NCBI RefSeq assembly: GCF_003334405.1
Contig: NZ_QOWM01000015.1
Reading direction: 5' to 3' (one strand)
Source: Escherichia coli
Lineage (GTDB): Bacteria; Pseudomonadota; Gammaproteobacteria; Enterobacterales; Enterobacteriaceae
DNA length: 64,000 nucleotides
The translations under genes and the position numbers were made by a program. Position 1 is the stretch's first letter, and each line of letters opens with the position of its first letter. Shown here piece after piece: positions 44,704 to 45,195 of the stretch. The notes below the pieces were generated by a model, which searched no databases, was not told the DNA's origin, and saw only the letters and a list, made by a program, of their open reading frames with translations.

Positions 44704-45195
44704 TTGCTATTGATTTTAATTTTTAAGATGATAGTACTTAATTATAAAAACAAAATAATGGAGGAAATTATGAGTGCTATTAATGTGTTATCTCAGGAGG
44801 AAAAATTTATACATGTTGTTGATAAATTTATAACCCATAATCACAACGGCGTTAATAACAATGTCTTTTATAAAAAACTTTATGTTCTCTTCGCCGGATA
44901 TCATCTGAAGTATTTTTATTCACGGGCGCAATATCGCAATTCGTGTTATCACGTTGATAATATCATGCAGATGTTTATGGGTGTCGTTTCTACCCTGAAG
45001 ACCCCTCTGCTCAGGCAACTCGCAAACAGTGACACATTGCTGCATTGCCTGAATTCGCTCGTGAATTATATTTCAGGCAATCTGGATGAAGCAGAGCACA
45101 TTTATGCTGATTTACTGGCACAGTATGAAAAGAAACGCATTGCACGTTCTCTGGCTTATACACCACCAGGATCCGTGGTCAGGAAAAGACTGTGA
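44704..45195 (+). CDS. hypothetical protein (C-terminus …SVVRKRL)
   Basis: 163-aa ORF; true start may be the internal MEEIMSAINVL. Confidence 0.5.
   Translation: MLLILIFKMIVLNYKNKIMEEIMSAINVLSQEEKFIHVVDKFITHNHNGVNNNVFYKKLYVLFAGYHLKYFYSRAQYRNSCYHVDNIMQMFMGVVSTLKTPLLRQLANSDTLLHCLNSLVNYISGNLDEAEHIYADLLAQYEKKRIARSLAYTPPGSVVRKRL

Follow-up and report, generated by a model that had tools for sequence, protein, structure and literature searches.

A C-terminal peptide module on proteins with dissimilar bodies in one family of enterobacterial mobilizable islands, a possible signal for conjugative translocation

Introduction

Protein transfer in conjugation is a young topic, with few substrates and poorly defined signals; in the F-plasmid "conjutome", cloned positively charged C-termini generally supported the transfer of Cre via an F-like type IV secretion system (T4SS), and most of the substrates were also transferred via pKM101 (IncN) and RP4 (IncP) (PMC11288057). 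Islands of the ROD21/EARL type, which possess a MobA/MobL-type relaxase and no T4SS of their own, depend on a co-resident conjugative plasmid (PMC6035254). Here we analyse a 64,000-nucleotide region of an Escherichia coli chromosome (contig NZ_QOWM01000015.1; hereafter the window), which contains an integrated island of comparable make-up, and a short C-terminal peptide common to two proteins encoded by that island: F1, an all-helical hypothetical protein, and Ank, an ankyrin-repeat protein. Both tails are instances of one conserved C-terminal peptide module of ~25–30 residues, which is probably a recognition tag read by one common trans-acting machine.

The window island is like the ROD21/EARL islands in having such a relaxase and in lacking its own T4SS (PMC6035254). 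It has an integrase, an AlpA-type helix-turn-helix (HTH) gene and a relaxase of Pfam family PF03432, the likeness to the ROD21/EARL type being one of description. No T4SS genes are annotated in the island, and none were present among the called genes of the related stretches examined. Because a relaxase is present and no T4SS genes are annotated, the island is best classified from its gene content as an integrative mobilizable element. It is integrated beside ssrA (transfer-messenger RNA, 60595–60957), whereas the ROD21/EARL islands are inserted at tRNA-Asn. One of its small lipoproteins is annotated as "SEN1984 family". The PIME islands, also considered, are a different family carrying trbJ, trbL and traJ.

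Results

Two proteins of the window share a C-terminal tail

Positions 45178–45195 of the window read GTC AGG AAA AGA CTG TGA, i.e., V-R-K-R-L followed by a stop codon, and form the end of the F1 open reading frame (ORF), whose C-terminus is ...YTPPGSVVRKRL. The ankyrin ORF on the opposite strand (48416–49369, −) terminates in ...EIPRSSVRKRL, and in a six-frame translation of the whole window VRKRL was found at these two ends only. The first-pass annotation of this DNA had pointed out the common VRKRL tail, and the match extends further than it had stated: the last 25 residues of the two proteins align without gaps, with 12/25 identities (AQYEKKRIARSLAYTPPGSVVRKRL and AAREKKDLLKEMKPEIPRSSVRKRL) and additional conservative I/L, R/K and L/M pairs. 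It had taken F1 for a 163-residue ORF starting from a TTG at 44704; the end at 45195 was correct, whereas the RefSeq call gives 141 residues from the ATG at 44770.

All pairs of window ORFs with 80 or more residues (n = 16,110) were scored by C-terminus-anchored ungapped alignment with BLOSUM62. The F1/Ank pair, with a score of 41, ranked first of the 16,110 pairs, the mean being −23.8 (standard deviation 10.4) and the next best score 20. The resemblance of the two tails is real and beyond chance. Coincidence, one of the options that the first-pass annotation had offered, is rejected in view of this extreme position among the anchored pairs and of the retention of the tail in the orthologues of both families, described below.

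The earlier statement that the final 24 nucleotides of the two genes are similar is true in a weak sense only. The genes agree at 14 of these 24 positions, including 11/15 in the VRKRL codons, where the differences (GTC/GTA, AGG/CGA and CTG/CTC) are all synonymous, and comparison of the 3' ends with the adjoining downstream DNA, a check that had been proposed, revealed no similarity past the stop codons. The nucleotide likeness does not exceed what a common peptide imposes, and a repeat or recombination scar at the DNA level was ruled out on these grounds, together with the use of other codons in other genera.

The F1 gene (44770..45195, +; RefSeq coding sequence WP_001274227) encodes 141 residues and is near-core in the island family. 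The last 27 residues of F1 (LLAQYEKKRIARSLAYTPPGSVVRKRL; 45112..45192, +) comprise an E-K-K-x-I helix, a Pro-rich linker and the RKRL end. The Ank gene (48416..49369, −) encodes 317 residues, with ankyrin repeats at ~1–160, an alpha/beta domain at ~190–290 and the C-terminal module, the last 27 residues (YIAAREKKDLLKEMKPEIPRSSVRKRL; 48419..48499, −). In the AlphaFold2 (AF2) model of Ank (mean predicted local distance difference test score, pLDDT, 82; predicted template-modelling score 0.73), the module consists of a short helix, 294–304 (AREKKDLLKEM), followed by a predicted disordered tail, 305–317, with pLDDT <50 and without secondary structure. The AF2 model of F1 is poor (pLDDT 48) and all-helical, with a final helix at 105–128 and coil at 129–141; its quality was too low for a fold search. 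The fold search with Ank returned full-length structural neighbours in Enterobacteriaceae only, the remaining matches being generic ankyrin proteins.

A common C-terminal domain of ~80 residues was hinted at by BLASTP (E 1e-4) and by a first hhalign comparison (76% probability, 61 columns). This candidate was rejected, as was a folded domain of the BID or XVIPCD type: when full profiles of F1 and Ank were compared, the match was limited to the last 25 columns (hhalign E 0.0017); profiles without the last 36 residues gave no match (E 0.55), and no Pfam domain was found in the tail region of either protein. Thus, the earlier description of the two proteins as otherwise unrelated holds at the level of sequence, and what they have in common is, by sequence and model, a helix with a flexible basic tail.

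Conservation of the tail within the F1 and Ank families

F1 homologues that are 59–92% identical occur in Escherichia, Salmonella, Klebsiella, Citrobacter and Enterobacter, and more distant ones in Rahnella, Buttiauxella, Dryocola, Yersinia, Pantoea, Pectobacterium and Erwinia. Related islands were gathered with the relaxase as bait (48 loci, one genome per species), and all their ORFs were scanned. F1 is present in most enterobacterial islands of the relaxase clade; the scan did not find it in the distant Pseudomonas, Gallionellales, Polaromonas and Methylibium loci. The close homologues retain ...Y-T-P-(P)-x-x-x-[R/K][R/K]-R-L, with variation in the 3–4 residues ahead of the basic end; among them the terminal R-L is invariant and K139 nearly so. 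Across the islands F1 proteins end in RKRL, KRPRL, RKRARL, KRKRL, SSRKKKRL, KKKRKGKRL, RRKRKKRRI, KDKRKRYGL or RKSGCRL, and one member ends in YRKLR.

The Ank family comprises several subfamilies with 27–60% identity, whose tails include VRKRL, LRKRL, VLKRL, KRKRI, VKRRL, AKKRL and NGGRL. In both families orthologues keep the tail down to ~27–35% body identity. In full-length alignments the mean fraction of the top residue over the last four positions is 0.80, vs 0.56 in the body, for Ank, and 0.72 vs 0.47 for F1, while the last 27 residues are on average not more conserved than the bodies. An apparent status of the module as the most conserved part of Ank was an artefact of an alignment containing fragments; in the full-length set only the last four residues stand out.

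Between genera the RKRL codons vary synonymously (AGG/AGA/CGA, AGA/AGG, CTG/TTA/CTC), which indicates that the constraint is on the peptide. Since the tail persists across Enterobacterales with synonymous changes and the downstream DNA is dissimilar, selection acts on the peptide and not on the DNA; the recombination scar suggested by the first-pass annotation is rejected.

Further carriers and definition of the module

The first-pass annotation had proposed a search for the motif in island and genome-wide proteomes. The scan of the related loci added two carrier families, F3 and F4, whose bodies score ~0 bits against body-only hidden Markov models (HMMs) of F1 and Ank. F3 is a 141-residue protein of Pantoea sp. 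(locus L025, 20206–20676) that ends ...AKREKNIIESKIHNKKSLNKTKKRL. F4 is an ORF of Trabulsiella (locus L041, 9378–9632) that ends ...AKEKYKITSGTATLLDGDNKRKRL. Neither has homologues among the remaining related loci. A database search in which both sequences were concatenated as the query found F3 homologues in Klebsiella variicola, Salmonella Newport and others, and F4 homologues of 127 residues ending ...TKEKEHIITESIIENHDENKRRRL. The latter retain KEK and a terminal KRRRL or KRKRL, the linker being replaced. Each family occurs in islands of this kind, F3 between the AlpA and DUF6387 genes, ~9 kb off the relaxase, and F4 directly adjoining the relaxase. As a description, the common C-terminal signal on unrelated proteins that had been put forward for F1 and Ank is supported by these two additional families.

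The module can be written as a helix, [A]-x-[R/K/Y]-E-[K/R/Q]-[K]-x-[I/L/V], a variable linker of ~11–17 residues, which is often rich in Pro, Gly, Ser or Thr and is predicted to be disordered, and a terminus, [K/R][K/R]-(x)-R-[L/I]-COOH. The Glu-Lys pair is located at exactly −22/−21 in the F1 and Ank proteins of the window, in F3 and in the F4 of L041. In a set of 51 non-redundant C-termini drawn from the four families, 90% have a hydrophobic residue at position −1, Lys or Arg occupies positions −2, −3 and −4 in 80, 63 and 75%, respectively, and no acidic residue occurs in the last four.

Searched against 4,266 non-redundant ORFs, the module pattern matched 23 C-termini and 0/552,942 internal positions; it should be noted that the pattern was written post hoc, so that this count describes its specificity and is not an independent test. 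When one tail per family was compared with 1,545 non-redundant tails (ORFs of at least 100 residues), the best non-self matches were almost all from the other three families. For comparison, a basic cluster with a terminal aliphatic residue ends ~0.6% of unrelated long ORFs in the loci (5/~795). The claim of similarity between families is carried by this ranking anchored at the C-terminus and not by ordinary local-alignment statistics, and the features that the families share are general ones, namely the E-K helix, a loose linker, a basic cluster, a terminal aliphatic residue and strict C-terminal anchoring. Thus defined, the module is seen on at least four families with no detectable sequence similarity between their bodies, and in one enterobacterial island family only. 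Every carrier has relaxase, AlpA or DUF6387 genes no more than a few kb away.

A 36-position profile of the module, run against 1.84 billion (1.84e9) representative proteins, returned F1 and Ank members only, always with the match at the extreme C-terminus, apart from three repetitive false positives. Ank matches Pfam Ank_2 (E 5e-6) and, throughout Pfam, NCBIfam, PHROGs and PADLOC, generic ankyrin models only; F1, F3, F4 and two neighbours of the carriers, a 146-residue and a MobC-like protein, belong to no family in these four collections. The searchable literature contained no description of these proteins or of the motif, and the protein accessions gave no match.

The island and its neighbouring genes

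Of 5,426 complete E. coli genomes, 59 contain identical or near-identical copies of 44000–50200, and each of these copies is chromosomal. From the ssrA end, the island consists of an integrase, a large recombinase and two ParB-family genes; a NACHT gene, a RelA/SpoT-domain gene, a DUF4928 remnant, the gene for the 146-residue protein and the ankyrin gene; a 135-residue gene, the PF03432 relaxase, three small predicted lipoprotein genes and F1; and, after ~1 kb of non-coding DNA, a 187-residue winged-helix-like gene, two small genes, an AlpA-type HTH gene and DUF6387. Islands of this family carry a PF03432 relaxase and a small MobC-like protein, as well as AlpA, DUF6387 and integrases.

The relaxase (46581..47810, −), assigned by annotation and Pfam, marks the island as mobilizable and served as the bait for the 48 related loci. 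Its residues ~283–296 form a (Pro-Val)n linker, PVPVPVPVPVPVPS, where the relaxase of locus L016 has (Pro-Ala)n; this stretch, of low complexity and variable, is a hinge that joins the nuclease domain to the C-terminal part. Upstream of the relaxase gene and overlapping it lies the 135-residue gene (47807..48214, −), called "MobC-like" from its position only; proteins 60–75% identical to its product are found beside the relaxase in related islands, and the MobC-like proteins of these islands do not carry the module. The 146-residue gene (49384–49824, −) is located 14 bp upstream of Ank and is conserved in related islands, including Klebsiella ones without Ank.

The intergenic region 48215–48415, between the stop codon of Ank and the start of the MobC-like gene, contains the palindrome (G)GTATACC twice (48314–48321 and 48334–48340) and a promoter-like TTGACT...TATCTGTAGT that three related islands have retained. 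The region is a candidate for an operator or an origin of transfer (oriT). In the ~1-kb gap between the 187-residue gene and F1, three direct repeats of ~36 nucleotides with a 49-bp spacing (44172–44305; core ...GTCAGTATAAATACGCTTCGCGCA) resemble iterons and may represent a replication origin or a regulatory array.

The 187-residue winged-helix-like protein beside F1 (43167–43730, −; weak HTH_36) ends ...RRRNPADGIPF. A P-A-D-(G/D)-I-P-F end of this protein is found in many islands; homologues in L004 (8504–9094), L013 (10446–11036) and L018 (13944–14612) end in ADDIPF, GRDDIPF or ADGIPF(D), and the Klebsiella and S. diarizonae versions are without the IPF tip. The C-terminus of the E. coli single-stranded DNA-binding protein (SSB) is DDDIPF, and the winged-helix-like protein may be a Rep-like island protein whose tip mimics the SSB tail.

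Farther toward ssrA, a 704-residue NACHT protein and a 301-residue RelA/SpoT-domain protein are encoded one after the other with overlapping stop and start codons (51509–54528, +). The pair is probably a defence cassette that the island carries as cargo.

Discussion

In our opinion, the reading to be preferred, though only tentatively and with less than even confidence, is that the module, with its positive charge, acts as a C-terminal signal for translocation through the conjugative T4SS of a helper plasmid. The coupling protein of that T4SS would recognise the island proteins through the module, and the tagged proteins would be sent into the recipient cell alongside the island DNA, where they could help establishment, for example against recipient defences; the module would serve as the address label of a cargo made up of Ank and the other bodies. 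A somewhat more doubtful extension is that mobilizable islands in this manner label a changing set of their own proteins (Ank, F1, F3 and F4) for injection with the island DNA via the helper channel.

Translocation is favoured because the element that bears the carriers spreads only through the T4SS of another element; because the tag is C-terminal, positive and predicted to be disordered; and because positively charged C-termini carried Cre through the F-like T4SS (PMC11288057). Specifically, T4SS signals lie in the last ~20–50 residues, and the module takes up the last 25–30 residues in all four families. The C-terminus is basic, as seen from the Lys/Arg frequencies at −2 to −4 and the absence of Asp and Glu from the last four positions, and the last 25 residues carry a net charge of +6 in F1, +5 in Ank and +8 in F3. 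The tail is unstructured in the AF2 models of both Ank (305–317) and F1 (129–141, at low confidence). All carriers belong to relaxase-bearing islands, for which a helper would be required. Furthermore, tails may differ within one island, as do KRKRYGL (F1) and KTKKRL (F3) in L025 and L058, and KKLRYGL and NKRRRL in L061, which fits a permissive reader.

Several points weigh against translocation. The role of the module, unlike its existence, is inferred. The T4SS signals of the positive-charge type known so far have a loose definition and do not require a conserved helix upstream, and the last 5–6 residues of the module fit a ClpX degron of the C-motif-2 class equally well. F4 has a net charge of ~0 over its last 25 residues. 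An HMM of the F1 tails alone does not significantly retrieve the tails of Ank, F3 and F4, and for this reason the similarity between families rests on C-terminal anchoring and general features. Three F1 members lack the basic end (L037 and L038, 12056–12496; L039, 12044–12514), and two shorter Pantoea homologues of Ank (L025, 8719–9423; L027, 8788–9501) stop after the E-K helix (...HQLEKEISKG), also without a basic end. The island relaxases are without the module, with one exception from an uncultured Enterobacteriaceae genome (L016, 9977–11185, +), which ends ...PLNKARKIRL and thus has a basic R-L end like that of the module. The profile search of 1.84e9 proteins did not find the module on any other protein family, and tblastn did not find F1, the C-terminal half of Ank or the 36-residue module in 72,556 plasmids, the sole match being a 3.6-kb Salmonella contig that is actually an island fragment and not a plasmid. 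Since it was found neither on conjugative plasmids nor on other protein families, the module is not a general signal common to known T4SS substrates.

The next explanation, which we regard as possible but unlikely, is that the module is a docking peptide for another partner, be it an island protein (the relaxase or the MobC-like, 146-residue or 187-residue protein), a host hub, nucleic acid or the membrane. In this case, effector bodies would not be exported but gathered in one location, for instance at the relaxosome or the replication origin of the island. The E-K helix and the basic end are kept at a conserved distance, which points to a contact that is structured and bipartite and not one of bare charge; the restriction of the module to the island family is as expected of an island-specific partner, and a second C-terminal tip, ...ADGIPF/...ADDIPF, on the winged HTH protein of the same island suggests that docking peptides are a habit of this element. 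Nevertheless, the differences between tails of one island point to permissive recognition as opposed to a lock-and-key fit, and the partner is hypothetical.

Mobile elements commonly time their proteins through host proteases. The module could be a recognition tag for ClpX, of the C-motif-2 type known from the phage Mu transposase MuA, by which the island proteins would be short-lived or remodelled and their activity placed under tight temporal control; we consider this, the main rival, improbable, although worth weighing. The MuA degron, CILEQNRRKKAI, is a C-terminal basic run with an aliphatic end and represents one of five classes of ClpX degrons (PMC12723719; PMC8138137). The tails VRKRL, KRKRI, KKRL, KRRRL, RKKKRL and RRKRKKRRI share this form, a basic cluster with a small or aliphatic terminus, are predicted to be disordered and have no acidic residue in the last four positions. 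However, C-motif-2 is poorly defined, which makes the resemblance weak evidence, and the variants KRYGL, SGCRL and NGGRL fit less well. Moreover, a degron needs the last few residues only, and the E-K-x-x-[I/L] helix located ~20–23 residues upstream in all four families is left unexplained.

It is very improbable that the tail is a segment copied between genes by recombination and retained without a shared function, or that basic C-termini coincide here by accident. The failure of the F1-only HMM to retrieve the other families, the overall conservation of the last 27 residues, which does not exceed that of the bodies, and the ~0.6% background of basic-aliphatic ends (5/~795) are compatible with such an account. 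Against it, the last four residues are conserved markedly above the bodies and are kept across genera despite synonymous codon turnover, the F1/Ank pair is an extreme outlier, the tails of the four families are reciprocal best matches, and the pattern has 0/552,942 internal matches. A eukaryotic nuclear localization signal (NLS) on host-directed effectors can be dismissed as barely credible: RKRL and KRKRI do resemble monopartite NLS cores, ankyrin repeats are common in bacterial effectors, and Ank has weak NCBIfam matches, confined to the repeats, to Legionella Dot/Icm Ank effectors (E 4e-6, a long way short of the curated cut-off), but the island encodes no secretion system aimed at eukaryotes, carriers are found in commensal, plant-associated and environmental Enterobacterales alike, F1, F3 and F4 have no eukaryote-like domain, and NLSs are not characterised by strict anchoring at a C-terminus that ends in Leu or Ile. 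Together, the readings weighed above take up most of our confidence, and the rest is left for explanations that are not listed here.

The module may be a compact, conserved and apparently portable C-terminal tag on four unrelated bodies. Were it a T4SS signal, it would belong to the rare ones defined by sequence, and non-autonomous islands would be shown to send out proteins of their own by way of a borrowed channel. Ank, F1, F3 and F4 would then be candidate establishment or anti-defence factors and would constitute an effector repertoire for conjugation from bacterium to bacterium, analogous to the effector suites of pathogenic T4SSs, and protein delivery by conjugation would gain a portable tag. 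Should the module prove to be a ClpX tag or a docking peptide, a point of control common to several uncharacterised island genes would still have been identified. The naturally tail-less F1 proteins of L037–L039 and the truncated Pantoea variants of Ank could serve as natural controls in functional assays.

Comparison with known systems

The C-terminal tip of SSB serves as a docking address. Like the SSB tail (DDDIPF), the module is a short, conserved and disordered C-terminal peptide; its charge is opposite. The ClpX degron of MuA (...NRRKKAI) likewise places 3–4 basic residues and an aliphatic C-terminus on a protein of a mobile element, and has neither the upstream helix nor the linker of the module.

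In Xanthomonas, XVIPCD is a conserved C-terminal element on effectors with differing N-terminal bodies. The same arrangement, comparable to that of the module, is seen in Bartonella, where the BID domain with its charged tail follows differing bodies (PMC3297438). Both BID and XVIPCD are folded and span ~100 or more residues, whereas the module comprises ~25–30 residues with no similarity upstream.

The positive-charge signals of T4SS substrates are loose clusters of charge, while the module is defined by its sequence, with an E-K helix upstream and a nearly fixed terminal R-L. Unlike the known T4SS signals, it is confined to one island family and is not on plasmids in the collections searched. 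With these signals, however, the module shares its position at the extreme C-terminus, a net positive charge, a predicted lack of structure, its occurrence on unrelated bodies and its residence in an element that depends on a T4SS.

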